DNA from: Gammaproteobacteria bacterium
GTDB lineage: Bacteria > Pseudomonadota > Gammaproteobacteria > CBDBBL01
Reading direction: 5' to 3'
DNA: 64,000 nt
Assembly: GCA_965203125.1 (NCBI GenBank)
Contig: CBDBBL010000018.1
Span: 11,949 to 75,948 of the forward strand
Of the stretch, positions 1,642 through 62,119 are shown one piece after another. The translations under genes and the position numbers were made by a program. Positions within the stretch are counted from its first letter, which is position 1, and each line of letters starts with the position of its first letter. Under the pieces are notes generated by a model that searched no databases, was not told the origin of the DNA, and saw only the letters and a list, made by a program, of their open reading frames with translations.

Positions 1642-1804
1642 TATACCCAAACTACTTGAAGAAGCCGAGACTTTAACATAATAAATTTGAGTAGAATAAA
1701 ATTTAAAAGATTGGGCAATAGCACCGCTATTGGAGAAGCTTTTAGATTTTATTCTGCCGAATTTATGCAGTTAAAGTCCAGTTTCTTCAAGTAGTTTGGG
1801 TATA
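1642..1804. mobile_element. MITE copy B1 (subfamily B: tatacccaaa..cttgaaga.gccg..ttaac...gcaatagcaccgctattg...cggcgtcttcaagt.gtttgggtata)
   Basis: ~163-bp palindromic element with long terminal inverted repeats. The same element recurs at 49225, 49813, 52026, 54898 and 58189, with a fragment at 8207. Confidence 0.85.
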
Positions 1805-2181
1805 TACATCTTCTGTAACGCACTCTCTACTAATAATGCAACATGTCGCTTTGTTCTAGGCAATGTTAATTGCTCTATCATATAAGACACTGTCAATTGC
1901 TCGGCAGCCTTTAAGTCCACACCCTTTAACATTCGACACACCCACTCTCCCAACGCAATTAATACAACACCGCCATATGCTTTATAACAAATATCAACTA
2001 TTTTATGGTCACTAACCAATAATTGAAATTGAACTCGGTCACTACCTAAGCAACCAGCACGTAGTGTCTTCAAATGATATGGGCGTACATCCTCCGACTG
2101 CTCCCACTCACCCACATGACGTGGCGAATAAAAATAAGACAACAAACGATCACTATACATCATCACCCCAACCACATTCAT
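1771..2181 (-). CDS. IscU/NifU-N-like Fe-S scaffold homolog, degenerate (true start probably at M7/M8 near 2160-2163)
   Basis: Aligns collinearly with E. coli IscU (YSDRLLSYFYSPRHVGE vs YSEKVIDHYENPRNVGS). Only the first conserved Cys (AGCLGSD) is kept; IscU Cys63 and Cys106 are replaced (KAYGGVV, KRHVALLV). The last ~10 aa (IPKLLEETGL) are encoded by MITE B1. Confidence 0.7.
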   Translation of the reverse strand: MNVVGVMMYSDRLLSYFYSPRHVGEWEQSEDVRPYHLKTLRAGCLGSDRVQFQLLVSDHKIVDICYKAYGGVVLIALGEWVCRMLKGVDLKAAEQLTVSYMIEQLTLPRTKRHVALLVESALQKMYIPKLLEETGL

Positions 2182-3331
2182 CTGGCACTAAATCACGTAA
2201 CTGCTTAACTGTTTTTATCACATGAGCACTTGCCGCCTTAATATCGTCTAACGTGGTAAATCTTCCCAACGAAAAACGAATAGAGCGATCTGCCTCTAGA
2301 TCAGAACACCCTAACGCACGCAACACATAAGATGGCTCAACGGTTGCTGCATTGCAAGCTGACCCTGATGAAACTGCTATTTTTTCAGTCAGCCCATAGA
2401 GCAAGGCCTCACCATCAACACCATCAAATGATAAATTCAAATTACCAGCAATACGATCATCCATCGATCCATTCAAAGTCACACCATCCAGCTCGCTCGT
2501 GATCAAGCTATGAAACTGCTGCCGCAACTGCAATATATCTAACTGCTCTTTTTGCATACACTGGCTCGCAAGCTGTGCTGCCTCACCCAAACCAACAATC
2601 TGGTGAGTCGCCAACGTACCCGAACGCAACCCTAACTGATGCCCACCTCCATAAATTAGCGGCTTCAATCGTGCCTTTGGTTTTTGCCTCACAAACAAAC
2701 CACCCGCACCTTTAGGACCATAGAACTTGTGTGCACTGAACGATAAATAATCAATCGGGATGTCCTTTAAATTAACAGCTATTTTGCCCACGCTCTGGGC
2801 TCCATCAACATGCAGTAATATCCCGTGAGATTTAACAATATCTGCGATTGAACTCATATCTTGAATAACACCTGTTTCATTATTTACATGCATGACAGAA
2901 ACCAATATGGTATCAACACGAATTGCTTTCTCTAACAGTTTTAAGTTTAAACAACCATCTCGATTCGGCTTGAGATAACTCACTTCAAACCCTTTTTTCT
3001 CTAGTACAGACATCACATCTAACACGGCTTTATGCTCGGTAGCCATGGTAATCACGTGATGTCCTCTACGCTGGTAAAATTCAGCAGCACCGAGCAATGC
3101 TAAGTTATTCGATTCTGTTGCTCCTGAGGTCCAAATAATTTCATCAGACACACAAGATAATAGCTGCGCAACTTGCCCTGCTGCTTTCTTCACTGCTGAC
3201 TTTGCCTGATAACCTAAACCATGATTAGACGCTGGGTTTGCGAATCCTTTCGTCTGCTGCATCCATGGCAGCATTTTTTCCAACACTCGCTGATCTAATG
3301 GTGTCGTTGCCATATAATCTAAGTAAATCAC
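2153..3331 (-). CDS. iscS: cysteine desulfurase IscS (PLP-dependent)
   Basis: 392 aa; class V aminotransferase fold with PLP-lysine context SFSAHKFYGPKG and C-terminal SSGSACN active-site Cys loop. Confidence 0.95.
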   Translation of the reverse strand: MIYLDYMATTPLDQRVLEKMLPWMQQTKGFANPASNHGLGYQAKSAVKKAAGQVAQLLSCVSDEIIWTSGATESNNLALLGAAEFYQRRGHHVITMATEHKAVLDVMSVLEKKGFEVSYLKPNRDGCLNLKLLEKAIRVDTILVSVMHVNNETGVIQDMSSIADIVKSHGILLHVDGAQSVGKIAVNLKDIPIDYLSFSAHKFYGPKGAGGLFVRQKPKARLKPLIYGGGHQLGLRSGTLATHQIVGLGEAAQLASQCMQKEQLDILQLRQQFHSLITSELDGVTLNGSMDDRIAGNLNLSFDGVDGEALLYGLTEKIAVSSGSACNAATVEPSYVLRALGCSDLEADRSIRFSLGRFTTLDDIKAASAHVIKTVKQLRDLVPDECGWGDDV

Positions 3332-4080
3332 AGGCGAACCTTATCAATAATATGTCGGCACAATCCACGCAAAATGTTGATTTCTTTTTTATCTAAACGT
3401 GTCCTAGCAAACAACCGACGTAAACGCCGCATTAAAAACTTCGGATTACCCTGATCTAAAAAACCCACAACTTGCAGCATTGACTCCAAATGTTGAAAAA
3501 AACCTTCTAACTGTGATTGATTTCCTAATTCGCTTAGCGTGTCAGGCTTAACATTATCCACCACAACTGATTGAGCGTGTTCACACTTAAGCAAGCGGTC
3601 TTGACGACGTAATTCATAAGCAATTAACAATACTGCCTGCGCTAAATTTAAAGAGTTATAATCTTCATTAGCAGGGATCGATAAATGTAGCTGGCACAAA
3701 TCAAGTGCAGCATTCGTTAACCCTGTACGCTCACAACCAAATAAAATAGCTACCTTGCTTATCTGCGTTTCTTGCAACAACTGCGCAGTGGCAACATCTA
3801 GCGATTGCTGTGGCAATGACACTGTTCTCATCCTAGCACTCGTTGCTGCAACCAATGTACAATCTGAAACCGCCTCTGATAACGAATCGACAACACTGGC
3901 CTGCTTTAATATGTCTTCTGCACCCGCAGATAATGCAGTCGCCTCAGGGTGTGGGAATAGCTTAGGTCGCACTAAAACAAGCTGACTCAACCCCATATTC
4001 TTCATGGCACGCGCTGTCGCTCCAATATTACCCGGATGAGAAGGACGGTCTAATACAATTTTAATTTGCTGTAATGACAT
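3328..4080 (-). CDS. trmJ: SpoU-family tRNA (Cm32/Um32) 2'-O-methyltransferase TrmJ-like (the ORF track extends to 4119 into MITE A1; the real start is probably MSLQQIKIVL at ~4080)
   Basis: SpoU/TrmH motifs (HPGNIGATARAMKNMG; AILFGCERTGL) and position immediately upstream of iscS as in E. coli trmJ. The first 13 codons of the long ORF lie inside the MITE. Confidence 0.8.
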   Translation of the reverse strand: MSLQQIKIVLDRPSHPGNIGATARAMKNMGLSQLVLVRPKLFPHPEATALSAGAEDILKQASVVDSLSEAVSDCTLVAATSARMRTVSLPQQSLDVATAQLLQETQISKVAILFGCERTGLTNAALDLCQLHLSIPANEDYNSLNLAQAVLLIAYELRRQDRLLKCEHAQSVVVDNVKPDTLSELGNQSQLEGFFQHLESMLQVVGFLDQGNPKFLMRRLRRLFARTRLDKKEINILRGLCRHIIDKVRL

Positions 4081-4243
4081 ATACCCATCACCTTTAAAGA
4101 AATCGTAGTTTAACTTCATGAATTTTGCAAAATTGAAATTTAAAAACTCTCACAATAGCCTGCTATTACTCGATCTTTTAAATCTAATTTTACTAAAATT
4201 CATTTTGTTAAAGCTCCGACGTCTTGAAAGGTGATAGGTATAG
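4080..4243. mobile_element. MITE copy A1 (subfamily A: tatacccatc.ccattcaaga..ccg..ttttaac...ttttgcaaaattgaaatttaaaaactttcgcaatagcctgctattactc...aaatctaattttactaaaattcattttgttaaaactccggcgtcttgaa.g.gatgggtata)
   Basis: 164-bp palindromic element. Near-identical copies lie at 40891, 42075, 48423, 54557 and 61956. Confidence 0.85.
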
Positions 4244-6006: not shown

Positions 6007-6094
6007 GGAGAGGTGGCTGAGTGGTCGAAAGCGGCGGTCTTGAAAACCGTTGAAGGGAAACCTTCCCAGGGTTCGAATCCCTGCCTCTCCGCCA
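6007..6094 (+). tRNA. tRNA-Ser (anticodon UGA)
   Basis: GGAGAGGTGGCTGAGTGG...CGGTCTTGAAAACCG...long variable arm...GGTTCGAATCCCTGCCTCTCCGCCA: an 88-nt type II tRNA. Confidence 0.9.
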
Positions 6095-6450
6095 CTTCAA
6101 ATCTATTCGAAGCCAAAATCCCACACAACCTACATACTCACCAGCAATCTCTTGCAGGGAAGCGAACCCGATACAGGGTTCGATAAAAATATCACGATGA
6201 TATTTTTAGATGACGTGCAGCGTCACCCGCAGGGCAAGCGCATGGATGCGCGCAGTCAATCCCTGCCTCTCCGCCACTTCAAATCTATTCGAAGCCAAAA
6301 TCCCACACAATCTACATACTCACCAGCAATCTCTTGCAGGGAAGCGAACCCGATACAGGGTTCGATAAAAATATCACGATGATATTTTTAGATGACGCGC
6401 AGCGTCACCCGCAGGGCAAGCGCATGGATGCGCGCAGTCAATCCCTGCCT
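6076..6450 (+). repeat. 182-bp direct tandem repeat (2 full units plus an 11-bp partial); each unit begins with the last 19 nt of tRNA-Ser
   Basis: Unit 1 is 6076-6257 and unit 2 is 6258-6439, with about 2 mismatches; a partial aatccctgcct lies at 6440-6450. Each unit holds a degenerate copy of the tRNA variable and T arms (agggaagcgaacccgatacagggttcga) and two palindromes (gacgtgcagcgtc, gcgcatggatgcgcgc). Confidence 0.85.
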
Positions 6451-7130
6451 AGTTTATAATTAACGACTGTCTCACCCATATTTCGAGCAATCATCATCCT
6501 CAAAAACAAAAAGCTACCTACTGCAAACCCAACACTCCCTAAGACCCAATACATCGCCATAATCCATGCAGGATTAATCTTCATTTGAGCCACAACACCT
6601 CCTGCAATATAAAATAACGAACCCAAGATAAAGCAAATCAATGCAATAACACTGATCGCCTCACTCTTCAACCAACTCTCTTTTTCTTCAACATTCGCCA
6701 GTATTGTTTTCAAACATAAAAAACTCGACGCCAAGTAGGCACATGATCCAAAACGAAACACCCATGTGCCATAATCTGCAACCGACATACCAAGAACCAA
6801 TCGATTGACAATTAACGGTAAATACAAACAAGACGCAAGTAAAAACAACGAAGCTCCCAGCAATTGAAAATGCTTTGCATAACACAATTGCTGTTGACTA
6901 TGATTTCTATCATTGACAGTCGATATATACAATGGATAAACCTCTAGGAAAGCAGCAAGCACCAAGCATGAGCAAGCAATAATCAAGCCAACAACTGCTC
7001 CCAAATAAAAAACTTTAGAGCACCCCAACAACCAGCAAGCAGGTACTAATAAAACACAACCTAAAAAACACAACGCACCACTCACTATTTCTCGATTTCT
7101 CATCATCACAAAACTCCTCTCAATTAACAT
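6438..7130 (-). CDS. polytopic inner-membrane protein, hypothetical
   Basis: 230 aa with about 6 hydrophobic segments; overlaps the next gene by 7 nt. The last 3 codons lie in the tRNA-derived repeat. Confidence 0.45.
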   Translation of the reverse strand: MLIERSFVMMRNREIVSGALCFLGCVLLVPACWLLGCSKVFYLGAVVGLIIACSCLVLAAFLEVYPLYISTVNDRNHSQQQLCYAKHFQLLGASLFLLASCLYLPLIVNRLVLGMSVADYGTWVFRFGSCAYLASSFLCLKTILANVEEKESWLKSEAISVIALICFILGSLFYIAGGVVAQMKINPAWIMAMYWVLGSVGFAVGSFLFLRMMIARNMGETVVNYKLGRD

Positions 7131-8203: not shown

Positions 8204-8956
8204 TCAACCTATACCCAAATCAATTGAAGATGCCGAGGTTTTAACATCAAGCATTTGCTTCACAAAAGGTAGTGTAATAGCTCGCTTCATTTGTAGCGAG
8301 CACTCACTCAAATACGCCAACAAATCAAACAACGCTCCCAAATCACGATCATAACGTTGCAAGATATATGTTATAACAGGAAGCTTAATCACTAACGAAT
8401 GTCGCCTAGCCCACTCAATCAATATCGCTTGTTTGTCACGATCACTACAATTAGGCATTTTCAGAATAATCGCAGAAGATAACCTTGAGTTCAAATCTGC
8501 AAGCTCAAATGTGGTATTTTTAGGTGATGATTTCGATGCAATCAATAATTGCTTATTATCATCTAAACGCTGGTTATAACAGTCAAATAACGCTTCCTCC
8601 CATTCGCGTGATGACGGTAGCGCATCCAAATCATCCAAACACAAGACATCAAAGTCATTTAAGTTTTCAAATACATCTGGCGCTAAATTTTTCGTCTTAA
8701 ATGATAGATAAAAGCAAGTACGTGAATAATCACCTTGCAGCACGTGACTCACCGCTTGTAATAAATGCGTTTTCCCCGTAGAAAGAGCTCCAAATAAATA
8801 TAAGAAACGATGCTGATCTTTCAAGAACTGCTTGAGCATTTCAACAATTAGCTCAAGCTCCGACTGCCCTCCATTCAATCTGCATTGATTGGTATAGAAA
8901 TTCTCAAATGCTGCTGACTCTCTATGACTAAGGTTAAGCGTTAACTGTTGTGCCAT
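8204..8956 (-). CDS. hda: DnaA-related AAA+ protein Hda (regulatory inactivation of DnaA)
   Basis: 250 aa; Walker A LFGALSTGKTHLLQAV with DnaA-like box layout. The C-terminal ~10 aa (SASSIDLGIG) are encoded by a subfamily-B MITE fragment. Confidence 0.7.
   Translation of the reverse strand: MAQQLTLNLSHRESAAFENFYTNQCRLNGGQSELELIVEMLKQFLKDQHRFLYLFGALSTGKTHLLQAVSHVLQGDYSRTCFYLSFKTKNLAPDVFENLNDFDVLCLDDLDALPSSREWEEALFDCYNQRLDDNKQLLIASKSSPKNTTFELADLNSRLSSAIILKMPNCSDRDKQAILIEWARRHSLVIKLPVITYILQRYDRDLGALFDLLAYLSECSLQMKRAITLPFVKQMLDVKTSASSIDLGIG
8207..8252. mobile_element. solitary terminus of a subfamily-B MITE (ctatacccaaatcaattgaagatgccgaggttttaac)
   Basis: Matches the B-family terminal inverted repeat. 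It forms the 3' end of the hda ORF. Confidence 0.6.
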
Positions 8957-10200: not shown

Positions 10201-10571
10201 TAGTATTACCCTAAAGAACTACACAGAAATAACTTGAATAATTGATCCCTTGTGATATCACGGACAGGCCATTGCGAAAGTTTTTGAATTTGTGTTCTAT
10301 CAAAAGCATGCGGTAAAAATCAGCGTTTTCAATGGTGGTGAGTATAACATGCTTTTGCTACAATGAATATGCTGTGGTTTAGGAACTGCCAGCAAATAAC
10401 TTAAGCGATTGGCGCACAGATTGTGTTCAGGCTTGAAGGTTTTGATTGAGAAAAACCACAGTAATAGCAAGCTATTGCACGGATTTTTCGATTGCTAAAT
10501 TTTCAAAGATGAGCATAAGCTGGGTGATGAATCGTTGAAGTTATTTACTGACAGCTCCTTAGGCATAAGGG

Positions 10572-34779: not shown

Positions 34780-34914
34780 TTCTAATCTCTCATTTATAAT
34801 AACTCACAGTGATAAACATATCTAAACCCAACAAGAAGCCACTTGAACCCAGTCCGTATTAATCAAAGCTTCAACATAAAAAAGCAGATTCCGCTTGCTT
34901 GCCGTTTCACTTAG

Positions 34915-40875: not shown

Positions 40876-40890
40876 CTCATTCCTTATTTA

Positions 40891-48618: not shown

Positions 48619-48662
48619 AAACTACGCCCAAATCTCGGCATCCTCAAGTAGTTTGGGTATAG
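48619..48662. mobile_element. internally deleted micro-copy of a subfamily-B MITE (termini only)
   Basis: tacgcccaaatctcggcatcctcaagtagtttgggtatag, the terminal repeat without the core. Confidence 0.45.
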
Positions 48663-48675: not shown

Positions 48676-49797
48676 TCAATTTACCACCAAGTCTCGACCC
48701 AACCAATGTTGCGCCACTTCCGCACCTCGGTAAGGTGGCATCACCGTGTTCTTTGATACCTCTGGCTGCCAACCCTTTTTCGCAAGAAATATTGCCGTTC
48801 CACGCTTTTCACTGTACGCACAAGCACCGAACGTAGAGATATTCCAGCGGTATTTTTGAAAAGTTTCAAAATCAAACTGATGCCTTTTCATACCTTTTAT
48901 ACTTGGCTGCCAACCTTCTAGCTGAAAAAAAGTATCAGGCTTACCTTGCCAAACGGTTGTCGGGCCAATTAAAAACGACAATAAAAAACCATCGTTTTTC
49001 TTTGCACTTGACTGATTGATACGCAGATAATTGCTCGAATGCAAATTAACCGCCAAAGTGTAATGGGAATTACCTAGATTATGATGTTGATCACGCGACA
49101 ATTGCTGCCGAAACGATCTCAAAAACCCCGACCTAGATCGATCCTCAACATCTCTGACCACAAAATGTCCGCCCAAGAGAAATAATTTCAGAAACTCCCT
49201 GACATTAACATCCGAGTTATCGTTGATACCTAAAGCGTTTGAAGATGTCGAGGATTTAACATAATGAGTTTGAGCAGAATCAAATTTACAGAATGGCGCA
49301 ATAGCACCGCTATTGCGAGAGCTTGTAGATTTGCATTCTGACAAACTCATGCCGTTAAAGTTCGGCGTCTTCAAGTGCTTTGGGTATAGAGATAAATCAT
49401 AATGTTGGTAACCTAAAATACGATAAGTTGGAGCAGCTCCTGATTTACCCACATATTCTAGCTGTGGTTTATACATCACTAACTTATGCTCAATCACATA
49501 TCTCTTAATAAATTGGATAAGTGCCCTATCCTTACTATTTGTTCCCTCAGGCGTTTTCCCATTCCAAAGCTCAACCAAATAATCTAAAGTACGATTGAAA
49601 TTCTGCAACGAATAAACAACATGATCACTTCCTTGCTGATAAATACTGTCCTGATAACGATCTAAATTACGCACACCCTGCTCAAAGAGACTATTAACAT
49701 ATTGATTTTTATTACTCAAAGAAGCATCAAGATTCACAATCGAGGCCTGACTAAGTGCAAAACACCCCATCAATAACACACCAATAAAAGCCCTCAT
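48676..49797 (-). CDS. secreted hypothetical protein (signal peptide) carrying an in-frame 55-aa MITE-encoded insert
   Basis: Signal peptide MRAFIGVLLMGCFALSQA. The internal segment LYPKHLKTPNFNGMSLSECKSTSSRNSGAIAPFCKFDSAQTHYVKSSTSSNALGI is encoded by MITE B2. Confidence 0.5.
   Translation of the reverse strand: MRAFIGVLLMGCFALSQASIVNLDASLSNKNQYVNSLFEQGVRNLDRYQDSIYQQGSDHVVYSLQNFNRTLDYLVELWNGKTPEGTNSKDRALIQFIKRYVIEHKLVMYKPQLEYVGKSGAAPTYRILGYQHYDLSLYPKHLKTPNFNGMSLSECKSTSSRNSGAIAPFCKFDSAQTHYVKSSTSSNALGINDNSDVNVREFLKLFLLGGHFVVRDVEDRSRSGFLRSFRQQLSRDQHHNLGNSHYTLAVNLHSSNYLRINQSSAKKNDGFLLSFLIGPTTVWQGKPDTFFQLEGWQPSIKGMKRHQFDFETFQKYRWNISTFGACAYSEKRGTAIFLAKKGWQPEVSKNTVMPPYRGAEVAQHWLGRDLVVN
49225..49389. 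mobile_element. MITE copy B2, in frame inside the CDS 48676-49797
   Basis: …gcgtttgaagatgtcgaggatttaac…gcgcaatagcaccgctattgcgagag…gttcggcgtcttcaagtgctttgggtatag. Confidence 0.8.
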
Positions 49798-49812: not shown

Positions 49813-49976
49813 TATACCCAGACCACTTGAAGACGCCAGACTTTAACGGTATGAGCTCGGCAGAATGCAAATTTAAAAGTTTTCCCAATAGCGATGCTAT
49901 TGCTCAATCTTTTAAATCTGATTCTGCTCAAGCTCATTATGTTAAAACCTCGGTGTCTTCAAGTAATTTGGGTATA
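49813..49976. mobile_element. MITE copy B3
   Basis: tatacccagaccacttgaagacgccagactttaac…cccaatagcgatgctattgctc…cctcggtgtcttcaagtaatttgggtata. Confidence 0.85.
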
Positions 49977-49989: not shown

Positions 49990-50613
49990 TCAGTGTAGAC
50001 TATCCTGACTAATACGCATTTTTCCTTGACGAATAATCTGACATGAATCTGAAGTAAAATCCACTACTGTTGTTGCTTCAATTTCAGAAAAACCACTATC
50101 CAACACATAATCTACTTGCTTCAACATAGATGTCCTTATATCCCCCGTATGACTCACAACACCATCGTCATGGTGCAACAATGAAACGCTCATTAATGGA
50201 TCACCATACTGGCGTACCAATGCCTGACAAATTTGATGATCAGGCAAACGTAACCCAATGGTTTTACGTTTAGGATGAAGTAACTTCTTTGGCACCTCTT
50301 TTGTCGCATTAAGTACAAATGTAAAAGCCCCTGGTGTATGTCGTTTGAGAAATTTGAATGTATGATTATCGACTTTAGCATAGGTACTTAAATGTGAAAA
50401 ACCCTGGCAAATTAGCGTAAATAAGTGATTCTTTTCCAACTGTCTTATTTGACGAATACGTTCTATTGCCTTTGCTTGCCCAACACCACAGCCTAACGCA
50501 TAACCAGAATCGGTCGGATAAATAATCACTGCACCCTCATGCAAATCATCCACAACCTGTTGCAACAAACGTTCTTGTGGGTTCTGCTGATGTATCGTTA
50601 GTATTTTAGCCAT
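49990..50613 (-). CDS. tsaC: L-threonylcarbamoyladenylate synthase (YrdC/TsaC family)
   Basis: 207 aa; YrdC motif PTDSGYALGC and the KxR…R layout. Confidence 0.8.
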   Translation of the reverse strand: MAKILTIHQQNPQERLLQQVVDDLHEGAVIIYPTDSGYALGCGVGQAKAIERIRQIRQLEKNHLFTLICQGFSHLSTYAKVDNHTFKFLKRHTPGAFTFVLNATKEVPKKLLHPKRKTIGLRLPDHQICQALVRQYGDPLMSVSLLHHDDGVVSHTGDIRTSMLKQVDYVLDSGFSEIEATTVVDFTSDSCQIIRQGKMRISQDSLH

Positions 50614-50787
50614 AGGTGAGTATATACTCGAAACAGATGAAAATGTCGAATTCTAACTTCAGAAATTCGGCAGACATTGAACTCAAACAACCTCTCAATA
50701 GCCGTGCTATTACTCAACTTTTTGATTCCAATTCTGCCCTAACTTCTTATGCTAGAAAATCGACATTTTCATCTGTTTCGAGTATAT
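50611..50787. mobile_element. MITE copy C2
   Basis: tatatactcgaaacagatgaaaatgtcgaattc…ctcaatagccgtgctattactcaac…tcgacattttcatctgtttcgagtatat. Confidence 0.8.
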
Positions 50788-51355: not shown

Positions 51356-51613
51356 ATGACTGAACGCATCCACAAAATACGGCAATGTCTTGAAACATCT
51401 TTAGCACCAGAACAGCTACATATTGAAGATGAGAGTGACCAACACATTGGACATGCAGGTGCGAAATCTGGTAGAGGCCACTTTGCCCTCACCATTAAAT
51501 CCAAACAGCTATCGAAACAAAATAAAATAAAAGCACATCAAATGATCTATCATGCGCTCGGAGAGCTAATGAACACAGATATTCATGCCTTACGCATTAA
51601 GATTGAAAAGTAG
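51356..51613 (+). CDS. BolA-family protein (YrbA/IbaG-like)
   Basis: 85 aa; BolA signature …DESDQHIGHAG…HFALTIKS…. Confidence 0.8.
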   Translation: MTERIHKIRQCLETSLAPEQLHIEDESDQHIGHAGAKSGRGHFALTIKSKQLSKQNKIKAHQMIYHALGELMNTDIHALRIKIEK

Positions 51614-52103
51614 TCAATATCAATTCTTTGGTATTATATAAGTTATAATACGTCCCATCAAAAAAGAAATGAAACATACCCAAGAAAAAACCAATCATTA
51701 GCAACAGCATTATCACACCTGAAATCACACCATAAAAAGCCCACCTCTTCTGCACTCGCTGGAATTCCTCAACACTGCCCCAATGTTTATTCCTCCACGC
51801 CCAAACACTGCCTCGACTGGCTAAGACAAAGGGTATTATCCAACCAATCACAGGAATGAAGCATAGGATGCTCAGGTAAACATTATTACCCAACCCCCAA
51901 ATCCACGTTAGCATGAATGCACCCCAATTCCATTTGCGAATTTCAGGAGGAATGGTTGAGAAATCACCTTTTCCTGAAATATATTCATCGCCTTTAGGAA
52001 TATCAGTTTTCAACGACTTCCTATCTATACCCAGCGCAGTTGAAGATATCGAGTTTTTATCAAAATGATTTTGAGTAGCATTGAATTTAAAAAACCGAAT
52101 CAT
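51597..52103 (-). CDS. small membrane protein, hypothetical; the N-terminal ~30 codons of the ORF are encoded by MITE B4 (the real start is probably internal)
   Basis: Three TM segments in the C-terminal two-thirds. The N-terminus (…NSISSTALGIDRKS…) matches MITE-encoded peptides seen elsewhere in the window. Confidence 0.4.
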   Translation of the reverse strand: MIRFFKFNATQNHFDKNSISSTALGIDRKSLKTDIPKGDEYISGKGDFSTIPPEIRKWNWGAFMLTWIWGLGNNVYLSILCFIPVIGWIIPFVLASRGSVWAWRNKHWGSVEEFQRVQKRWAFYGVISGVIMLLLMIGFFLGMFHFFFDGTYYNLYNTKELILTTFQS

Positions 52104-52188
52104 AGCAAGCCTATGGTGAGTTTTTTTAAATTGAATGACACCAAAAACATGAAGCTAAAAAGCAGTATCTTCAACTGCTTTGGGTATA
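52026..52188. mobile_element. MITE copy B4 (core more diverged)
   Basis: tatacccagcgcagttgaagatatcgagtttttatc…aatcatagcaagcctatggtg…gcagtatcttcaactgctttgggtata. Confidence 0.75.
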
Positions 52189-52197
52189 TGAATAAAT

Positions 52198-53001
52198 TCA
52201 TTTTTTAGCTACGTCATCTATCATTTTCTTGCGGTTCTTGAAATAAAACAGTGGTCCTGAAATTGCATAACCAACGAAAACAATAAACAACACAACAGGC
52301 GGATCAACTGCAATAAAAATAAGCGTTAACACCACCAGTAACATCGTCATAAATGGCACATGCTGTTTCACATTCAAATCTTTAAAGCTTCGATATGGAA
52401 TGGAAGTAATCATCATAATGGCTAAAAATATCGGCACCACCGCTAACATCACTACAAAAATAGGAGAAACATGAATATGAAAACTCTCTAATACCCAGAC
52501 TAAACCTGCCAACACACCTGCAGCAGCTGGACAGGCCAACCCTTGAAAATAACGTTTTGAAGTTTCTTCTGTGACATTAAATCTTGCCAAACGCAAAGCA
52601 ACAGCCACCGCATAAACAAATGCAATTAACCAACCAATCTTACCCAACGCATTTAACCCCCAAACATACATTAAGCAAGCAGGCGCTATTCCAAAAGAAA
52701 CCATATCTGACAAGCTATCCAACTCTGCCCCAAATGCAGTTTGCGTATTAGTCAGTCTCGCAACACGTCCATCAAGGCTATCAAGTAACATTGCAATAAA
52801 AATAGCAACCGATGCCCAAATGAGCTGTGTGCCTTCTGGATGATGAAAACTAGCAATAATCGCATAAAACCCAGAAAACATCGCAGAAACTGTGAAAAGG
52901 TTTGGCAACAAATAAATACCCTTACCTCGATGTCGAAATCTTGATTTCGATTCATTCTCTATCGACTGTTCACTGTTAACCTTTTTATCTGACTCAGACA
53001 T
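52198..53001 (-). CDS. pssA: CDP-diacylglycerol--serine O-phosphatidyltransferase (CDP-alcohol phosphatidyltransferase type)
   Basis: DSLDGRVARLTNTQTAFGAELDSLSD, the CDP-OH transferase motif; 267 aa with multiple TM segments. Confidence 0.75.
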   Translation of the reverse strand: MSESDKKVNSEQSIENESKSRFRHRGKGIYLLPNLFTVSAMFSGFYAIIASFHHPEGTQLIWASVAIFIAMLLDSLDGRVARLTNTQTAFGAELDSLSDMVSFGIAPACLMYVWGLNALGKIGWLIAFVYAVAVALRLARFNVTEETSKRYFQGLACPAAAGVLAGLVWVLESFHIHVSPIFVVMLAVVPIFLAIMMITSIPYRSFKDLNVKQHVPFMTMLLVVLTLIFIAVDPPVVLFIVFVGYAISGPLFYFKNRKKMIDDVAKK

Positions 53002-54556: not shown

Positions 54557-54720
54557 TATACCCATCATCATTCAAGAAACCGAATTTTAACTTCATAAAT
54601 TTTGAAAAATTGAAATGTAAAAATTTTCGCAATAGCCTGCTATTACTCAATTTTTTAAATTTAATTTTTCTAAAATTCATTTTGTTAAAACTCCGGCATC
54701 TTGAAAGGCGATGGGTATAG
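54557..54720. mobile_element. MITE copy A5
   Basis: tatacccatcatcattcaagaaaccgaattttaac…cgcaatagcctgctattactc…ccggcatcttgaaaggcgatgggtatag. Confidence 0.85.
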
Positions 54721-54897: not shown

Positions 54898-55061
54898 TAT
54901 ACCCAAACCGCTTGGAGACGCCGAGGCTTTAACATAAGGAGCTTGAGCAGAATCAGATTTAAAAGATTGAGCAATAGCACCGCTATTGGGAAAGATTTTA
55001 GATTTGTATTCTGCTGAGATCATGCCGTTAAAGTTTGGTGTCTTCATGTGGTTTGGGTATA
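54898..55061. mobile_element. MITE copy B5; its right end encodes the last ~10 aa of the Bax-like protein
   Basis: tatacccaaaccgcttggagacgccgaggctttaac…gcaatagcaccgctattggg…gtttggtgtcttcatgtggtttgggtata. Confidence 0.85.
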
Positions 55062-55759
55062 CATTGTGCATACTGACCCAAATCATATTGCAGAATAATG
55101 TGCTGAATCGTTGATACGTACCAAACACCTCTCTCAGAGTAATTACTCAATCCTACCGCCATCTGCACACCCAAGTTCATCGTCTTCTTCTCACTCAAGA
55201 AGTCTCGACGAATCTGCCACAATTGTTTGTGCGCTGAATTACGGTTTAAGTTTAAAAAATAAGCAGCCACGGAGGCTTGCCTTGTTGGAAACTTCTGCAC
55301 TGCAAAACGCCACTGACTAGAACGATCTTTCGGCTTCAAACCACACTGTGGCTGAGAGCACCATTGACCAAAATAGTTATGTGCCTGCCTAGCAAACCGT
55401 GACTGCCCCCATGCTGACTCATTAATCGCTTGCGCTAACACCAAAGAAGCAGGAATGATGTTTACTCTTAAACTTAACTGCTGAAATAAACGACGATTAA
55501 CTCCAACAAATGGTAGATTAAAACGTGCCGCTAATGATAACAACCACATCTTCTCTACTGAATTCAAATGATTGTTGGCTTGCCATAACGATTGATAATG
55601 TAAAATCAATTGGTGCATTTTGTGATACTTCACATTAGTTGCACAAATTGCTGGCACCATTTTTTGAATAAACTGAGTCTGCTTCTCAGTTAGTTTTTTA
55701 GGCGCAGCGTAACTGTATGATGAGAAAATAATACAATAGCAAATCAACACCCATTTCAT
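55028..55759 (-). CDS. Bax-like secreted protein with a glucosaminidase (FlgJ C-terminal type) domain
   Basis: Signal peptide, then ASLVLAQAINESAWGQSRFARQAHNYFGQW, typical of the mannosyl-glycoprotein endo-beta-N-acetylglucosaminidase domain. The C-terminus IPKPHEDTKL is MITE-derived. Confidence 0.65.
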   Translation of the reverse strand: MKWVLICYCIIFSSYSYAAPKKLTEKQTQFIQKMVPAICATNVKYHKMHQLILHYQSLWQANNHLNSVEKMWLLSLAARFNLPFVGVNRRLFQQLSLRVNIIPASLVLAQAINESAWGQSRFARQAHNYFGQWCSQPQCGLKPKDRSSQWRFAVQKFPTRQASVAAYFLNLNRNSAHKQLWQIRRDFLSEKKTMNLGVQMAVGLSNYSERGVWYVSTIQHIILQYDLGQYAQCIPKPHEDTKL

Positions 55760-58554
55760 GCTGAAATCAGACTTTTGGTGACCACCTCTTTCACATCATT
55801 GGACAATCCTTGATTTTGCTTAATCCGCTCTAACACCTGCTTCATCAGCTGCTGTCGTGGCAAATCAAACTTCCTCCAGTAAATCAATGGCTCTACCAGC
55901 CGAGCTGCCAGTTGTGGATTAAAACGATCTGCCTCCAAGATTTGCTGTTGCAGAAAATGATAGCCTGAACCATCAATCACATGAAATGCGATTGGATTAT
56001 TAACACAAAACTGTCCCACCAAAGCACGCACTTTATTTGGATTACAAGCATCATATGCCTCATGTTCCAATAATACTTGTACTCGACTCAACGCGCTGCC
56101 TCCTTCAAGCGAATCATGAGCAGTTGCTTGTAATGACAACCACTTATCGACCACTAGTGCTTGGCTCTGCCAGCGTCGATAAAAATGCGCTAACTGTTCA
56201 TTCCTTTGGACTGAAGCCACTTGATTCAATGCTATTAACGCCCCAAATTCATTAGTCATATTACGTGAACACTGGTACTGATCAACACAATGCGCTCTAA
56301 TTTCTGGCGTCGATGCTATTGCTAGCAACTTCATGCTTGCATTTTTTAAAGCCCGCAGCCCAATTTGATCACTATCATACTCAGCAGTACCTGTCTTATT
56401 TTGCTGACTTAACACCAATAATGAGGACCTTAAAGCAATCGAAATTGCTTGCTGATAATGATCTAATGCTTGAGCTAAATATTCCAACCTCACTTGATCA
56501 AACATAGCTATTAACTCTGCTAAAGTCGGCAATGTTAACAGTCGCGCTTTCAACCCACAGTCAAGTGTATCATCATCCACAATGCACTGGTAAGCATTGA
56601 TAATACGCTGATCAATTTGGACAACCCCACCTTGTTTCAAGCTATCATTTGCTTGCTGAATTGCCCCTATCAGCAATTGATTAGTAATATCCCAACGATT
56701 AAACCCATCTGTTTCATGCTGCATCAGACATAAAAGTGAATCAATTGAATAAGTATAATTCATTTTAACTGGCGCTGAAAAACCACGATTTAATGAAACA
56801 ATGGGCTGTTCATCAACCGACTCAAAAATAAACGTTTCCACTTCCTGCGTCACATGTAATACATTGGAGTCACTTAAGCTTCCCTGTTTCAACATCAATG
56901 GTATTTGCTGCCCATCATGAGTAAACAACCCAATACGCAACGGAATAAAAAACGGCAACTTTTCAGAACCATCTGCTGTATTATCACAATGCTGCTCAAT
57001 CGTTAAATGGTAATACTGTGTTGCCTCATCATAACGGTCTGTCACCGTCAGAATCGGCGTTCCTGCCTGATGATACCAGCGTTCAAATTGTGTTAAATCA
57101 AATTCTGATACTTCGGACATGCAAGCGACAAAATCTTCTGTCGTCACCGCTTGCCCATCAAAACGAGAAAAATATAAATCAGTCCCTTGACGATATTTTT
57201 CTTGCCCCAGCAAGGTATGCAACATGCGAATCACTTCCGCACCTTTGTTGTATACAGTCACCGTATAAAAGTTATTAATCTCATCAAAATGATCAGGACG
57301 AATGGGATGCGCCATCGGTCCTGCATCTTGTGCAAACTGTGCACTACGAATGATCTTAACATCATCAATCCGTGTCACCGCTTGCCCAACCTGATCTTCG
57401 GTAAAAGACTGGTCACGAAAAACGGTTAAGCCTTCTTTTAAACTTAATTGGAACCAATCTCGACAAGTGACACGATTACCTGACCAATTATGAAAATATT
57501 CATGTGCAACAACACCTTCCACTGCAATCAAATCTGCATCTGTTGCAGTTTGTGCATTCGCTAAAACATATTTGGTATTGAAAATATTGAGCCCTTTATT
57601 CTCCATCGCACCGAAGTTAAAGTCACTCACAGCAACAATCATGTAAATATCTAAATCATATTCACGACCATATTTCTCCTCATCCCAACGCATTGCACGC
57701 TGTAAAGAAGCCATTGCATGTTGTGTTTGATCTAAAAACCCTTTCTCCACATAGAGCTTTAAATCAACATTACGTCCCGACTGAGTAATAAACTGATCAG
57801 ATAAACAATCAAAATCACCTGCAACTAACGCAAATAAATAACAAGGTTTTAAGGATGGATCCTGCCAAACCACTTGATGACGCCCATCAGCAAGATCACA
57901 AGCATCGATTTGATTACCATTAGATAACAACTGGGGAAATTTGCTTTTATCTGCTCGAATTGTGGTCGTAAAATACGACAGTACATCAGGACGATCCAAA
58001 AAATAAGTAATCCGTCGAAAACCATGTGATTCACATTGCGTACAGTAGTTGTCATTAGAAATGTACAGCCCGCTTAAAGTTTTATTAGTCTTCGGACTAA
58101 TAAAAACTGTCGTTTCCAATAAGAATGACTCACTGGGTGGATTCAGAATCGTTAAACCTGTCTCATCAACCTGATAATCAGTACCATCTATACCCAAATC
58201 ACTTGAAGACGCCGAGGTTTTAACATAATGAGCTTGAGCAGAATCAGATTTAAAAGATTGAGCAATAGCATCGCTACTGGGAAAACTTTTAGATTTGTAT
58301 TCTGCCGAGCTCATGCCGTTAAAGTCCGGCGTCTTCAAGTGATTTGGGTATAAAACTTGCCCATTGAGCTTAAGCATATGTAATTCAAGTTGTTCCCCAT
58401 TAAGAAACAGTGGCTCATGAGCAGGTGTATGCGCTTGTCTTTTTAACTTTAACTGACTAATAACACAAGTACGTTCTTCGGCTAAATCAAAAATCAACTC
58501 AACTTGGCTGATTTGGTAATTCGGCACTTGATAGTCTTTTAAATAAGTTGTCAT
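55756..58554 (-). CDS. pepN: aminopeptidase N (M1 family) with an in-frame 54-aa MITE-encoded insertion near the N-terminus
   Basis: HEYFHNWSGNRVT…LKEGLTVF zinc-binding and gluzincin motifs, collinear with E. coli PepN. The extra segment YPNHLKTPDFNGMSSAEYKSKSFPSSDAIAQSFKSDSAQAHYVKTSASSSDLGI matches MITE B6 exactly in position. Confidence 0.9.
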   Translation of the reverse strand: MTTYLKDYQVPNYQISQVELIFDLAEERTCVISQLKLKRQAHTPAHEPLFLNGEQLELHMLKLNGQVLYPNHLKTPDFNGMSSAEYKSKSFPSSDAIAQSFKSDSAQAHYVKTSASSSDLGIDGTDYQVDETGLTILNPPSESFLLETTVFISPKTNKTLSGLYISNDNYCTQCESHGFRRITYFLDRPDVLSYFTTTIRADKSKFPQLLSNGNQIDACDLADGRHQVVWQDPSLKPCYLFALVAGDFDCLSDQFITQSGRNVDLKLYVEKGFLDQTQHAMASLQRAMRWDEEKYGREYDLDIYMIVAVSDFNFGAMENKGLNIFNTKYVLANAQTATDADLIAVEGVVAHEYFHNWSGNRVTCRDWFQLSLKEGLTVFRDQSFTEDQVGQAVTRIDDVKIIRSAQFAQDAGPMAHPIRPDHFDEINNFYTVTVYNKGAEVIRMLHTLLGQEKYRQGTDLYFSRFDGQAVTTEDFVACMSEVSEFDLTQFERWYHQAGTPILTVTDRYDEATQYYHLTIEQHCDNTADGSEKLPFFIPLRIGLFTHDGQQIPLMLKQGSLSDSNVLHVTQEVETFIFESVDEQPIVSLNRGFSAPVKMNYTYSIDSLLCLMQHETDGFNRWDITNQLLIGAIQQANDSLKQGGVVQIDQRIINAYQCIVDDDTLDCGLKARLLTLPTLAELIAMFDQVRLEYLAQALDHYQQAISIALRSSLLVLSQQNKTGTAEYDSDQIGLRALKNASMKLLAIASTPEIRAHCVDQYQCSRNMTNEFGALIALNQVASVQRNEQLAHFYRRWQSQALVVDKWLSLQATAHDSLEGGSALSRVQVLLEHEAYDACNPNKVRALVGQFCVNNPIAFHVIDGSGYHFLQQQILEADRFNPQLAARLVEPLIYWRKFDLPRQQLMKQVLERIKQNQGLSNDVKEVVTKSLISA
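58189..58352. mobile_element. MITE copy B6, in frame inside pepN
   Basis: tatacccaaatcacttgaagacgccgaggttttaac…gcaatagcatcgctactggg…gtccggcgtcttcaagtgatttgggtata, 164 bp. Net 162 bp if TA is a shared target duplication. Confidence 0.85.
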
Positions 58555-58647: not shown

Positions 58648-60288
58648 TTAGAACCTGTAAAAAACAACTGGGTTTCTTGCAGGGTCAGGGTGATAAACAT
58701 TCATAAAATCAAGCATTGTGTATGATCCTTGCTGGTAGCACATTGCATCACATGAACATGCTTCTGGTCTTTGATAATGCCTCTTAACATAAGCTAACTT
58801 CATCGGCAGGTTTTGCAAAATCGACTCCATCTCTCTTAAGTGCATATTCACACCTCGAATCACGATTTCTTGTGTTAATCTAAATCGTTTACAAATCTTA
58901 CACAACGGTTCAAATAAAGCATACAGCTGCGCCCACTGGATCAATGTCGAAGTTGTCAAGATTAGATCAACACGATAACTTTGATCACTCTGCTTATCTA
59001 ATGGATCAAAATAATACAACTCTGCCGATTTAATCAAGTCACCTAACTGCATTCTTAAGATCTGCGTGATACTATTTTCTGACACAATCGGCGCATAATC
59101 AAGTGGTAAGATTCTAAGTTTGACCAGTTGCTTACGTAAAGCAAACAGTGAAATTAGCTTTGCTTGAGGGTTCAAAGCGACAGGAAGCTGCTTTAAATTG
59201 TGTTGCTTAAATTTATCCATCGAATAGTAACAGTGGATACTCTGATCAGTTGCTGTTTTTACCTCAACAAACGCAAACTTTTTTTGATGGGTTAGCACCT
59301 CATGGGTTAATAACCTACCTGATTTATCAAACAAACAAGGTGTCATCTTACGACCAGCCCAGTACCCATAACCATATTCAAAACCCAATTGCTCATATTG
59401 CTCAATATCCCTTAAAGCAATGAAGCAATACACGGGAATACCATTAACAGGTACAGATATAAAAGTTAAATTTGCCCAAGCAACATGTTGATGCTGCTGC
59501 ACCCGTGATGAAAAGCTAAAATACTCGCTTGAATTTAATCTAAAATCAGCGTTTTGACGAAACATATATTGTGCATATTGTTCGTAACTGATTGCACTTG
59601 TTGCCGGAAAACTGTTTTGTGCATCAGTTAGGAAATAACCATCGGCAGTATATTTGAACATGGCAGGCATTTGCTCAGGATGCTGGTGATAACGATTGAG
59701 CCTTTGCAAAGCGTCATCTTGATTATTCGGCATATGTTGTATAAATCTTGCCAATCCACCAATATCTTTCGCACTAATATGGGAATCAGCAGTTCCTCCC
59801 AGTGGATAGTCGTCTCCAGTTGATATCGCACCTAACTGATGTAATCCTGCATAAGTTAAAACCACTTCACCTGCTCGAAATTTTCGATTGGCAAATAAAC
59901 CACACCCAACTCGATCATCTATCTTTGCGACAATAAAATCATCCGAAGGGGATTGACATAAACGAACAGACACCAATCGTTGTAAGTCTCTATCGAACGC
60001 TTGTGGTGGTAATTCCATTTCTCTATCGATTTGAGGTGTCACCCATGTGCTTTCTGAGTATTGAAAGTGATGTATCACCTCAAGCCTTGATACTGCTGTC
60101 CTAGTAATTCTACTAGGAATAATCGGTACCTGATCCATTGTTAATACATAGTCAGAACTAGCACTTTTCACACGATCTATATTCACATGTCTTCTCGAAG
60201 TAGTCACAATGTTTGCCGATTGAACAATACGCTGTGATGATTGATGAGAACGGCGATATTTTTTCTTAGCTTTGCGACCCATAGGCAT
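58648..60288 (-). CDS. SET-domain protein (putative protein lysine methyltransferase; eukaryotic-like effector candidate) with a basic NLS-like N-terminus
   Basis: Three SET signatures in order: GxG region VGCGLFANRKFRAGEVVLTYAGL; NHSC-like ARFIQHMPN; ELxFDY-like EQLGFEYGYGYW. The N-terminus reads MPMGRKAKKKYRRSHQ. No secretion-system signal recognisable from sequence. Confidence 0.5.
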   Translation of the reverse strand: MPMGRKAKKKYRRSHQSSQRIVQSANIVTTSRRHVNIDRVKSASSDYVLTMDQVPIIPSRITRTAVSRLEVIHHFQYSESTWVTPQIDREMELPPQAFDRDLQRLVSVRLCQSPSDDFIVAKIDDRVGCGLFANRKFRAGEVVLTYAGLHQLGAISTGDDYPLGGTADSHISAKDIGGLARFIQHMPNNQDDALQRLNRYHQHPEQMPAMFKYTADGYFLTDAQNSFPATSAISYEQYAQYMFRQNADFRLNSSEYFSFSSRVQQHQHVAWANLTFISVPVNGIPVYCFIALRDIEQYEQLGFEYGYGYWAGRKMTPCLFDKSGRLLTHEVLTHQKKFAFVEVKTATDQSIHCYYSMDKFKQHNLKQLPVALNPQAKLISLFALRKQLVKLRILPLDYAPIVSENSITQILRMQLGDLIKSAELYYFDPLDKQSDQSYRVDLILTTSTLIQWAQLYALFEPLCKICKRFRLTQEIVIRGVNMHLREMESILQNLPMKLAYVKRHYQRPEACSCDAMCYQQGSYTMLDFMNVYHPDPARNPVVFYRF

Positions 60289-60812: not shown

Positions 60813-60934
60813 CTTTCATGTCCCATTTTGGGGAACAGGATCAAATGATCAAATGTGCCCACTTAAGCGTGTGCGTCTGTAATCTGCATCATGCAACGAT
60901 GATACTGATATCATCGTTGCTTACAATAGCGTGA

Positions 60935-61891
60935 TTATTGGGTTGTTTGCGCCGTTAAATTACCTGTAATCACACCATCTCGCATTTGTGATGCTAAATC
61001 ATGCAACCCTGAAGGATTATGTGGCAACAAAATAGTCGTACTCTTATCTTTAGCACCAATTTCTTTTAAGGTGTCATAATATTGCGTCATTAACACTAGA
61101 CTCATCACATCTTTCGCAGAACTATCTGGCACACCTTGCTGAAACTCTTCGATACTTTCTTTAAGTCCATCAATAATCGCACGACGTTGATCAGCAACTC
61201 CCTGTCCACTTAAACGCATACTTTCCGCTTCAGCTTCCGCTTGCTTCACTTTCAATATCTTTTCAGCCTCGCCACGTTCTTGTGCTGCCATACGCAAGCG
61301 CTTTTGCTCATTAATTTCATTCATTGCATTTTTCACTTTTTCATCTGGATCAATATCTGTCACCAATGATTTCACAATGTAATAGCCAAAACCAGTCATG
61401 GTCTCACTCAACTCTTCTTTAACGACATTCGCCACCGCATCTTTATTTTCAAATAAGCCATCTAGTTGCATTTTAGGCACTTGTGCACGCACGACATCAA
61501 AGACAAACGATTGAATTTGCGCTGCTGGATCAGATAATCGATAGAAAGCATCAAACACTTTATCAGTCAACACATGAAACTGTACGGCAACCATAATTTT
61601 CACAAAGACATTATCTTGTGTTTTCGTTTCAACGGTGACATTCAATTGCTGCACTTTCAAGCTAATGCGACCACTGACTTGCTCAATCAGTGGGATTTTG
61701 AAATTGAGTCCTGCTGGGCTAATACGCTTAAATTTCCCCAGTCGCTCAACCACAGCAACTGTTTGTTGCTCCACTGTAAATAAGCCACCTAAAATAAGTA
61801 TCGCTAGTAGTACTCCGAGAACAATTAATCCTGCCATAAATTCACCTCTAATCGTTGTATTCTGCGATAAGTATGCTAGATAAATCGACAT
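60935..61891 (-). CDS. SPFH/band-7 (stomatin/prohibitin-like) membrane protein
   Basis: N-terminal TM segment, then the SPFH domain (…FTVEQQTVAVVERLGKFKRISPAGLNFKIPLIEQV…) and a C-terminal coiled coil. Confidence 0.8.
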   Translation of the reverse strand: MSIYLAYLSQNTTIRGEFMAGLIVLGVLLAILILGGLFTVEQQTVAVVERLGKFKRISPAGLNFKIPLIEQVSGRISLKVQQLNVTVETKTQDNVFVKIMVAVQFHVLTDKVFDAFYRLSDPAAQIQSFVFDVVRAQVPKMQLDGLFENKDAVANVVKEELSETMTGFGYYIVKSLVTDIDPDEKVKNAMNEINEQKRLRMAAQERGEAEKILKVKQAEAEAESMRLSGQGVADQRRAIIDGLKESIEEFQQGVPDSSAKDVMSLVLMTQYYDTLKEIGAKDKSTTILLPHNPSGLHDLASQMRDGVITGNLTAQTTQ

Positions 61892-61955
61892 ATCGCAATC
61901 AAGTGCTTATAATTTCAAACTAAAATTAAGGAACGCGTACAAAAACCATGCTGAC

Positions 61956-62119
61956 TATACCCATCACCTTTCAAGACGCCGGAGTTTTAACAAAATGAAT
62001 TTTAGAAAAATTAAATTTAAAAAATCGAGTAATAGCAAGCTATTGCGAAAGTTTTTACATTTCAATTTTGCAAAATTTATGAAGTTAAAATTCGGTTTCT
62101 TGAATGGTGATGGGTATAG
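61956..62119. mobile_element. MITE copy A6; it supplies the ATG and first ~13 codons of the downstream acyltransferase
   Basis: tatacccatcacctttcaagacgccggagttttaac…cgagtaatagcaagctattgcg…cggtttcttgaatggtgatgggtatag. Confidence 0.85.

Follow-up and report, generated by a model that had tools for sequence, protein, structure and literature searches.

Enterobacterial repetitive intergenic consensus (ERIC) elements, also called IRU or RU-1, duplicate a TA dinucleotide, and the copies of Escherichia coli and Salmonella begin TATACCCGTCATATTTCAAGCTGCA and TATACTCGTCATACTTCAAGTTGCATG (PMC2759123). Delihas described in 2007 that annotated genes have ERIC-type repeats fused to them, among them one at the C-terminus with loss of the normal stop codon, and did not see in-frame insertion of a whole element for ERIC (PMC2759123). 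The Rickettsia palindromic elements (RPEs), palindromes of about 150 nt, are found in frame in unrelated housekeeping genes, where the encoded peptide is predicted to be fold-compatible (PMC10969869). According to a 2024 review, such fusions of repeats and genes are "not unusual" (PMC10969869). Here we analyse a family of miniature inverted-repeat transposable elements, or MITEs, in a 64,000-nt stretch of a gammaproteobacterial contig (CBDBBL010000018.1), which is referred to as the window throughout. Judging from the sequence comparisons below, the element shares the terminal signature of ERIC without being ERIC proper. Its behaviour is like that of the RPEs, and the kind of phenomenon is one already known. 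The best overall explanation, which we consider probable, is that a TA-inserting MITE with ERIC-type ends has been tolerated at many genes and that the surviving insertions fall into four classes.

Two other families are close in kind. The Correia elements (NEMIS) of Neisseria are likewise MITEs with a TA duplication that reside at gene boundaries, can be co-transcribed and affect expression, and form a hairpin that is a substrate of RNase III; both ERIC and Correia elements have been reported to alter mRNA stability via RNase E or RNase III (PMC10969869). For Correia elements outward promoters are documented, whereas our promoter scan gave no enrichment for the window MITE. The Correia terminal repeats, TATAG[CT]GGATTA, differ from those of the window element as well. 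QMITE1 and QMITE2 of Coxiella burnetii, an intracellular gammaproteobacterium, are MITEs that overlap annotated open reading frames (ORFs) and encode basic peptides (PMC5896051). As identities of the element they are excluded by size and by the type of direct repeat: QMITE1 measures 300-400 bp and has variable direct repeats of 2-3 nt, and QMITE2 has direct repeats of 7-11 nt and a GTAG repetitive extragenic palindromic (REP) sequence. The full texts searched, for the terminal sequence and for MITEs of Chlamydiae or Legionella, contained neither a description of this family nor one of MITEs in those two groups.

Anatomy and mobility of the element

Searches for direct and inverted repeats followed by a MAFFT alignment delineated a family whose members measure 163-164 nt, are imperfectly palindromic and have the ends TATACCC...GGGTATA. 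An nhmmer profile detected 13 full copies in the 64-kb window (1642-1804, 4080-4242, 40889-41052, 44247-44410, 48423-48585, 49225-49388, 49813-49976, 50623-50786, 52026-52188, 54557-54719, 54898-55061, 58189-58352 and 61956-62118), one 5'-truncated copy (42101-42251) and about five fragments (about 8210-8253, 10265-10347, 10451-10501, 33966-34010 and 48630-48662), which amounts to about one copy per 5 kb. A strict two-end pattern matched seven copies in the window, against none by chance. The termini read TATACCCA-N6-TTSAAGA, and three types can be told apart: A-type copies (163 nt) end in ...CATCACC, B-type copies (163 or 164 nt) in ...CAAAC or ...CAAAT, and C-type copies (164 nt) in TATACTCGAAACAG. 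The arms are 76-100% complementary, and each copy folds as RNA into a single long hairpin, with energies between -64 and -84 kcal/mol and z-scores between -11 and -13 (copy 1642-1804, -72 kcal/mol and z -13).

Every copy is bounded by TA...TA and the outer flanks are unrelated between copies, as is expected for a TA target-site duplication. When the element was excised in silico together with one TA, continuous ORFs were restored at every genic site; excision of the intergenic A-type copy 54557-54719 leaves intergenic sequence. The copies are short, carry terminal inverted repeats and contain no transposase, and an ORF of transposase size would not fit inside them. The scan of window ORFs turned up no transposase gene, and the two-end pattern search does not reach the length of a complete insertion sequence. 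With 13 full copies dispersed over 64 kb and a difference in occupancy in a relative (contig L075), the element is a non-autonomous transposable element, that is, a MITE, which is dense and recently active in the window.

The occupancy difference concerns the gene for a YihG-type acyltransferase at 43362-44420 on the minus strand. A C-type copy of 164 nt (44247-44410, net insert 162 nt) is located in codon 4 and is read in frame, so that the ORF runs from a native GTG at 44420 through VKSI and 54 MITE-encoded residues into FAVLK...; the YihG-type profile NF058536 aligns from residue 60. ENA contig L075, which carries a second member of this acyltransferase cluster, is syntenic with window positions 47131-42271 at 74-80% DNA identity and has no MITE at the 5' site of the gene, where it reads ATG AAG AAT ATA TTT GCG (MKNIFA). 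Excision from the window gene yields GTG AAA AGT ATA TTT GCA and the protein start VKSIFAVLK, matching the empty site. Therefore, the element moved after the two lineages had split. A reading of the window from its letters alone (the sequence-only reading) had listed this gene among four whose N-terminal codons are provided by a MITE. The start itself is not donated, because the native GTG lies upstream of the element together with a strong Shine-Dalgarno (SD) duplex and L075 has the intact start MKNIFA. The SD duplex amounts to -9.4 at GTG 44420 and -2.5 at ATG 44249, with a median of -4.1 kcal/mol for 35 window genes as a reference. This latter ATG (44249-44247 on the coding strand) stands in frame at the element boundary, where the duplicated TA at 44247 reads CA on the plus strand. 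As the start of the acyltransferase it is less likely than the native GTG by SD strength and by the empty site; it is a possible secondary start, created by a T-to-C point mutation in the duplicated TA.

How close the family comes to ERIC depends on the part compared. At the termini, 17-20 of 27 positions agree for the A- and B-types and 14-16 of 27 for the C-type, where random 27-mers give a mean of 8.4 and a 99.9th percentile of 15. The window MITEs carry the ERIC terminal pattern TATAC[CT]C-N7-TTCAAG with the TA duplication; both families form imperfect hairpin palindromes, contain open frames and are fused to gene 3' ends and N-termini. ERIC sensu stricto is nevertheless excluded by length and by the missing central core (the target of ERIC-PCR): ERIC measures 127 nt and the window element 163-164 nt, and local alignments of the unrelated interiors score 7-9, which means no similarity. 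Further differences from ERIC are the host, a divergent gammaproteobacterium with its nearest PepN match at 52% identity, the much higher density and the frequent in-frame insertion of the whole element, including into conserved domains. The in-frame habit is shared with the RPEs. The hosts here include PepN, AroA, MurG, Dxr and TsaB, and the likeness concerns function only; RPEs belong to another host phylum, and the window family also has a 163-nt form at gene boundaries that cannot be read through.

Insertions at gene ends, gene starts and within proteins

Nine to ten of the 13 full copies lie no more than 15 nt from a native start or stop codon, compared with 6.4% of the TA sites in the window (binomial P about 1e-8). 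Since 89% of the genome is coding, we take this boundary bias for an effect of survivorship. In the 164-nt forms one frame is open across the entire element. A fully open frame occurs in 9 of the 13 window copies (shuffle mean 1.5, maximum 5) and in 45 of 74 copies from other genomes (shuffles 23.3 +/- 3.6), counts that are not independent because the copies share descent.

It is reasonable to propose that only insertions tolerable to the host persist, and that the survivors form four classes. An element in the last one or two codons would cause readthrough to the first in-frame stop, 10-13 codons in, and the gene would acquire a new tail together with a stop supplied by the element. Where the element lies just 5' of the start, the native ATG is kept, and the A-type end places an SD-like GGTGAT 6-8 nt upstream. 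Within the first three to five codons or in a surface loop, a frame open across a 162-nt insert would preserve the native start and add 54 residues to the protein. Finally, a frame-breaking insert of 161 nt in the first three to five codons would reduce the native reading frame to a mini-ORF, with a TGA that shares bases with an ATG inside the MITE (ATGA); since the -1 shift of this overlap exactly cancels the frameshift, termination-reinitiation could yield a protein with a MITE-encoded N-terminus. The window offers a natural experiment on where insertions are tolerated: in the last two codons, in the first five codons, directly before the ATG and in in-frame loops.

Donated stops had been proposed for five ORFs, each with about ten MITE-encoded codons at its end, and at three of them the tail and the stop do lie within a MITE. 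The gene for an IscU-like (NifU_N) protein (1771-2181, minus strand) has its last 10 codons and its TAA stop (1771-1804) inside the 163-nt B-type copy 1642-1804; it now ends in ...QKMYIPKLLEETGL (IPKLLEETGL before the stop), and excision restores ...QKMYTY. Likewise, the gene for a Bax-like glucosaminidase (55028-55759, minus strand) has its last 10 codons and stop inside the B-type copy 54898-55061, so that it ends in ...QCIPKPHEDTKL (IPKPHEDTKL before the stop) in place of ...QYAQCI. In a small pilin-like ORF (41010-41222), itself a doubtful remnant of 70 residues, the last 13 codons and the stop (IPIAFQDAGVLTK) are located inside the A-type copy 40889-41052; the ORF now ends in ...SIPIAFQDAGVLTK, and excision restores ...LVSISK. 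In all three genes the native stop is displaced by about 160 nt and is out of reach. As there is no in-frame host stop before the element, ribosomes that finish these genes must read into the MITE, if the genes are translated at all. The recurrence of the same peptides in MITE-encoded termini, noted in the sequence-only reading, was confirmed.

The other two candidates came out differently. In hda (8204-8956) the last 13 residues (DVKTSASSIDLGI) stem from a MITE half-fragment at about 8210-8253, and alignment to the Hda profiles stops at residue 236 of 250; the fragment supplies codons, but the stop is not donated, because the TGA (8204-8206) lies in host sequence 3 nt outside the fragment. 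For ORF 6438-7130 the proposal had to be abandoned: only GRD and the stop (12 nt, about four codons) overlap with a repeat, and this repeat does not belong to the MITE family. The relative L075 offers a separate case. Its acyltransferase gene carries at the 3' end (L075:3580-3743) a family member with diverged ends of its own (TATAGCTAACACGGTTAAGTATGAA), a copy that the window does not have. By its position, it represents a stop-codon donation that arose independently.

In the second class the element stops short of the coding region. An A-type copy of 163 nt (4080-4242) directly adjoins the 5' side of the trmJ ATG (gene 3328-4080, minus strand; native ATG 4080-4078), where the T of the duplicated TA corresponds, on the coding strand, to the A of the start codon, and the protein starts MSLQQIK.... 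The claim that the MITE donates the N-terminus of TrmJ was not sustained: the native ATG is intact, the TrmJ profile (NF011694) begins at residue 16 of the long ORF, and a strong SD duplex is present only at the native ATG (GGTGAT, -10.0 kcal/mol, compared with -0.3 for the MITE-internal ATG 4119). The 13 codons upstream (4081-4119) are a spurious extension into the MITE. At the MFS transporter gene 47198-48421 another A-type copy (48423-48585) ends 1-2 nt 5' of the intact native ATG, and the MITE end puts GGTGAT 8 nt before it (SD duplex -8.9 kcal/mol). Duplexes as strong as these two occur at about 5% of all window ATGs (5th percentile -8.5). In both genes the SD-like element end may be used in initiation, as far as can be inferred from its position. 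Two more copies leave the start codon intact, namely 49813-49976, which ends 15 nt 5' of the ATG of a 373-aa ORF, and the C-type copy 50623-50786, which lies 9 nt 5' of the ATG of a yrdC/sua5-like gene (49990-50613). A fragment of an A-type end (33966-34010) was found upstream of ORF 33428-33985, whose TTG start (33985) falls inside the fragment and whose likely ATG (33946) follows 13 codons downstream. This TTG start is a further spurious N-terminal extension, which the sequence-only reading had not listed.

Two B-type copies of 164 nt are inserted in frame well inside proteins. Copy 49225-49388 encodes residues 138-191 of the 373-aa ORF (48676-49797), and excision gives a continuous ORF of 319 aa. 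Copy 58189-58352 encodes residues 69-122 of the 932 residues of aminopeptidase N (pepN, 55756-58554, minus strand), where the 54-residue insert separates two beta-strands of the N-terminal domain; again, excision restores a continuous PepN. PepN homologues among the matches listed have 862-912 aa and are without the insert. An AlphaFold2 model of PepN (mean predicted local distance difference test score, pLDDT, 86; predicted template modelling score 0.87) shows a sole long stretch below pLDDT 50, residues 72-122, as a coil between confident beta-strands.

Among 1.84 billion representative proteins, a profile for the 54-residue peptide matched 14 at E < 1e-10. Ten of these were looked up, and all were singletons from one NCBI/ENA draft genome. 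One of the 14 matches (P0250, 373 aa) has the same length and insert position as the 373-aa ORF of the window, and this agreement ties the draft genome of the peptide-bearing proteins to the window. Proteins with the whole peptide in frame include AroA, MurG, TsaB and Dxr as well as a UbiH-like monooxygenase, a YrbG-like exchanger, a PAP2/VTT protein and a DUF285 protein. For MurG, TsaB and Dxr the insertion comes after codons 3-4, which is also its place in acyltransferase 43362. The corresponding search with the A-type peptide, a short query with few candidates sharing exact words, matched just two small ORFs. In PepN, the 373-aa ORF, acyltransferase 43362, AroA, MurG, TsaB and Dxr, the host protein continues in frame on both sides of the insertion, as in the proteins that carry RPEs. 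These intragenic copies, which the sequence-only reading had overlooked, recast the phenomenon as RPE-like, coding-compatible insertion and not specifically as a donation of termini.

The fourth class comprises two starts with a broken frame. A diverged A-type copy of 163 nt (61956-62118, net insert 161 nt) lies in codon 3 of a native acyltransferase ORF on the plus strand. The native start is stranded: from ATG 61948 a frame of 16 codons (MLTIPITFQDAGVLTK; 61948-61998) leads to the stop TGA 61996-61998. The YihG-type acyltransferase ORF 61995-63002 starts at the MITE-internal ATG 61995, and its first 41 residues are MITE-encoded. Its only in-frame ATGs (61995 and 62079) are both inside the MITE, as had been pointed out before. 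The YihG-type profile starts at residue 47, and the ORF scores 366 bits against the YihG model (cutoff 260), compared with 358 bits for the paralogue. Most homologues have about 290-320 aa, compared with 335 aa here, and most of them begin ML(S/N/R)FLP, which is matched by the N-terminus MLTRYPLALL obtained upon excision.

At the second locus, on the minus strand, a diverged B-type copy of 163 nt (52026-52188, net insert 161 nt) is located in codon 5 of a membrane-protein ORF. Translation from the native ATG 52201 would run 33 codons into the MITE, to the stop TGA 52102-52100 (mini-ORF 52100-52201), and the membrane-protein ORF 51597-52103 restarts at the MITE-internal ATG 52103 with 26 MITE-encoded residues. 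Excision restores the start MNLFIDRKSL. The native start 52201 itself forms an ATGA overlap with the stop of the upstream CDP-alcohol phosphatidyltransferase gene (52198-53001).

At both loci the 161-nt insert puts the native ATG and the rest of the gene in different frames. In each case the TGA of the mini-ORF overlaps the MITE-internal ATG as ATGA (61995-61998 and 52103-52100), so that the stop and the downstream start stand in the -1 phase that is expected for translational coupling by overlapping stop and start codons. Judging from this arrangement, termination-reinitiation at the ATGA may be how 61995-63002 and 51597-52103 are still expressed. All four ORFs said to have MITE-encoded N-termini (trmJ in its long form, 43362-44420, 51597-52103 and 61995-63002) do start in a MITE or read through one. 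Donation of the start itself stands for the last two insofar as the native start is cut off and a MITE-internal ATG is the only in-frame option; its actual use is plausible. At these two loci it can be tested directly whether stop-start reinitiation rescues an insert that breaks the frame.

Alternative readings of the insertions

At these two loci, 61995-63002 and 51597-52103 could also be pseudogenes that were inactivated by the MITE, with the internal ATGs and the ATGA overlaps arising by coincidence. We regard this as possible, if rather doubtful. It would agree with the out-of-frame native ATGs and with the SD duplexes, which are absent before ATG 52103 (-2.4) and only modest before 61995 (-6.1). 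Moreover, acyltransferase 61995, of which the window holds a paralogue, may be a pseudogene of recent origin, and the ATGA in copy 61956 is a feature of the A-type consensus and not a new mutation. Yet both downstream ORFs are intact, and the acyltransferase scores no lower against the YihG model than its paralogue. The two copies are also the most diverged in the window (24% for 61956 and 30% for 52026 from the subfamily consensus), and an unconstrained ORF of 294 codons seldom stays open, with a chance of about 1.6% after 10% neutral substitution. In addition, the ATGA provides precisely the -1 shift that is needed after a 161-nt insert, and it does so at both loci. Tolerated insertion by a TA-targeting MITE, which we prefer, also has to accommodate several points that weigh against it. 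The divergence of copies 61956 and 52026 may reflect another source subfamily and not age, which would weaken the argument for purifying selection. The two ATGA overlaps occur at different element positions, and with n=2 their recurrence may be due to chance or ascertainment. The low pLDDT of the PepN insert is partly expected where the alignment consists entirely of gaps. If the whole element is transcribed, GGUGAU would sit in the base of a stem of about 80 bp and be occluded, so that SD donation may be wrong or may need RNA processing or a transcription start inside the element. The empty-site comparison covers one locus only, and close relatives of this genome are almost absent from the databases. 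Element anatomy, insertion points, the one empty site, reading frames and public annotations are direct observations; from these we infer the translation and the tolerance of the MITE-encoded tails and inserts, and use of the SD-like end and reinitiation would be further steps.

At the opposite end, the MITE codons might never be translated, all genes using termini outside the element, in which case the fusions would be annotation artefacts only. This applies to the long trmJ ORF and to the TTG-started extension of ORF 33428-33985, and the public gene calls are uniformly of the longest form. As a general explanation it is very improbable, since the 3'-end insertions leave no in-frame host stop before the element and translation must enter it, and since the conserved protein is resumed after the element, in an unchanged frame, in PepN, in acyltransferase 43362 and in the rest of the in-frame insertions. 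The warning that annotation pipelines are affected holds in any case: every public gene call checked uses the MITE-extended form. The public calls include one clearly wrong start (trmJ) and several proteins with element-encoded ends or inserts, and masking the MITE family before gene calling would alter at least a dozen protein models. Alternatively, the elements could have been exapted by the host as RNA modules with a regulatory or structural role (as terminators, targets of RNases or sources of small RNAs), so that their position would reflect function and the overlaps with coding sequence would be incidental. The very stable hairpins, the effects on mRNA stability reported for ERIC and Correia elements via RNase E or RNase III (PMC10969869) and the three copies exactly at a terminator position fit such a role. 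It is nonetheless unlikely, because presence or absence varies between relatives and many copies lie within coding sequence, where such a function is implausible. Furthermore, no T-tract follows the MITE hairpins, promoter-like and terminator-like hits are not enriched overall and fall on no consistent site in the elements, and an Rfam search of the window matched five tRNAs and no MITE. A more speculative extension of tolerated insertion starts from the behaviour of the 161- and 162-nt inserts, and we offer it only tentatively. The family may have evolved near-harmlessness through the open frame of 54 codons, the ATGA built into the 161-nt A-type and the terminal GGTGAT, and elements with the same ends would then form a cross-phylum superfamily with a coding-compatible habit. 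If so, the element could colonise start and stop regions even of essential genes, and the RPE phenomenon would extend far beyond Rickettsia, to Chlamydiota, Verrucomicrobiota and Alpha-, Beta- and Gammaproteobacteria.

Same-ended elements in other genomes and features of the host

A two-end pattern scan of one genome per species found 74 loci with elements of 153-172 nt that have the ends TATACCCA-N6-TTNAAGA (L001-L074). Their hosts comprise many metagenome-assembled genomes (MAGs) of environmental Chlamydiota, Legionella massiliensis, MAGs of Alphaproteobacteria, Burkholderiales and Verrucomicrobiota, Vibrio (including Vibrio algivorus), Moritella, Colwellia, Endozoicomonas and others. At most of the 74 loci the interior is undetected by the window-derived profile. 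Same-ended elements within or at genes are found at L004:3838-4001, L042:5047-5210, L055:2157-2320, L070:5572-5735, L015:1748-1910 and L030:3557-3718; these loci include in-frame copies in a P-type ATPase, an AMP-binding enzyme, an ABC-F ATPase and a glutamine synthetase, as well as copies in which a TolC-like and an RNase Y-like gene terminate. The members of this cross-phylum superfamily presumably share a transposase type. In-frame copies across phyla suggest that RPE-like selfish DNA in protein genes is a trait of a widespread superfamily with ERIC-type termini and not a peculiarity of Rickettsia.

The best matches of PepN and of acyltransferase 61995 show 50-52% identity, with none above 52%, and some of them are gammaproteobacterial. 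A 546-aa protein with a eukaryote-like SET domain (58648-60288) adjoins pepN. Together with the MITE load, this protein hints at a host-associated lifestyle of this divergent gammaproteobacterium.

Several features of the window and of its relative stand apart from the MITE insertions. Three small overlapping ORFs at 41010-42029 have N-termini resembling type IV minor pilins (GFSVIE, GHTLFE and NGFALL) and gave no Pfam match; they are bracketed by the MITE copy 40889-41052 and the truncated copy 42101-42251. Where the window has these pilin-like ORFs, L075 carries the gene for an IS200/IS605 Y1 transposase (L075:5044-5496), which was set aside as a related feature because it has no counterpart in the window. 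The repeat at the end of ORF 6438-7130 belongs to a region (6007-6451) in which tRNA-Ser(TGA) is followed by two tandem units of 182 nt, 99% identical to each other, and a third, partial copy of 12 nt. Each 182-nt unit opens with the final ~19 nt of the tRNA at its 3' end and includes a palindrome of 25 nt, TAAAAATATCACGATGATATTTTTA. By its structure, this array looks like att sites in several copies or like a miniature integrative element. It is of another kind than the TATACCC family of MITEs, to which it was not assigned. Finally, in a VgrG-like (Phage_GPD) gene at 36380-39211, a stretch of 56 nt (37183-37238) recurs outside the gene at 34911-34966 with 88% identity.

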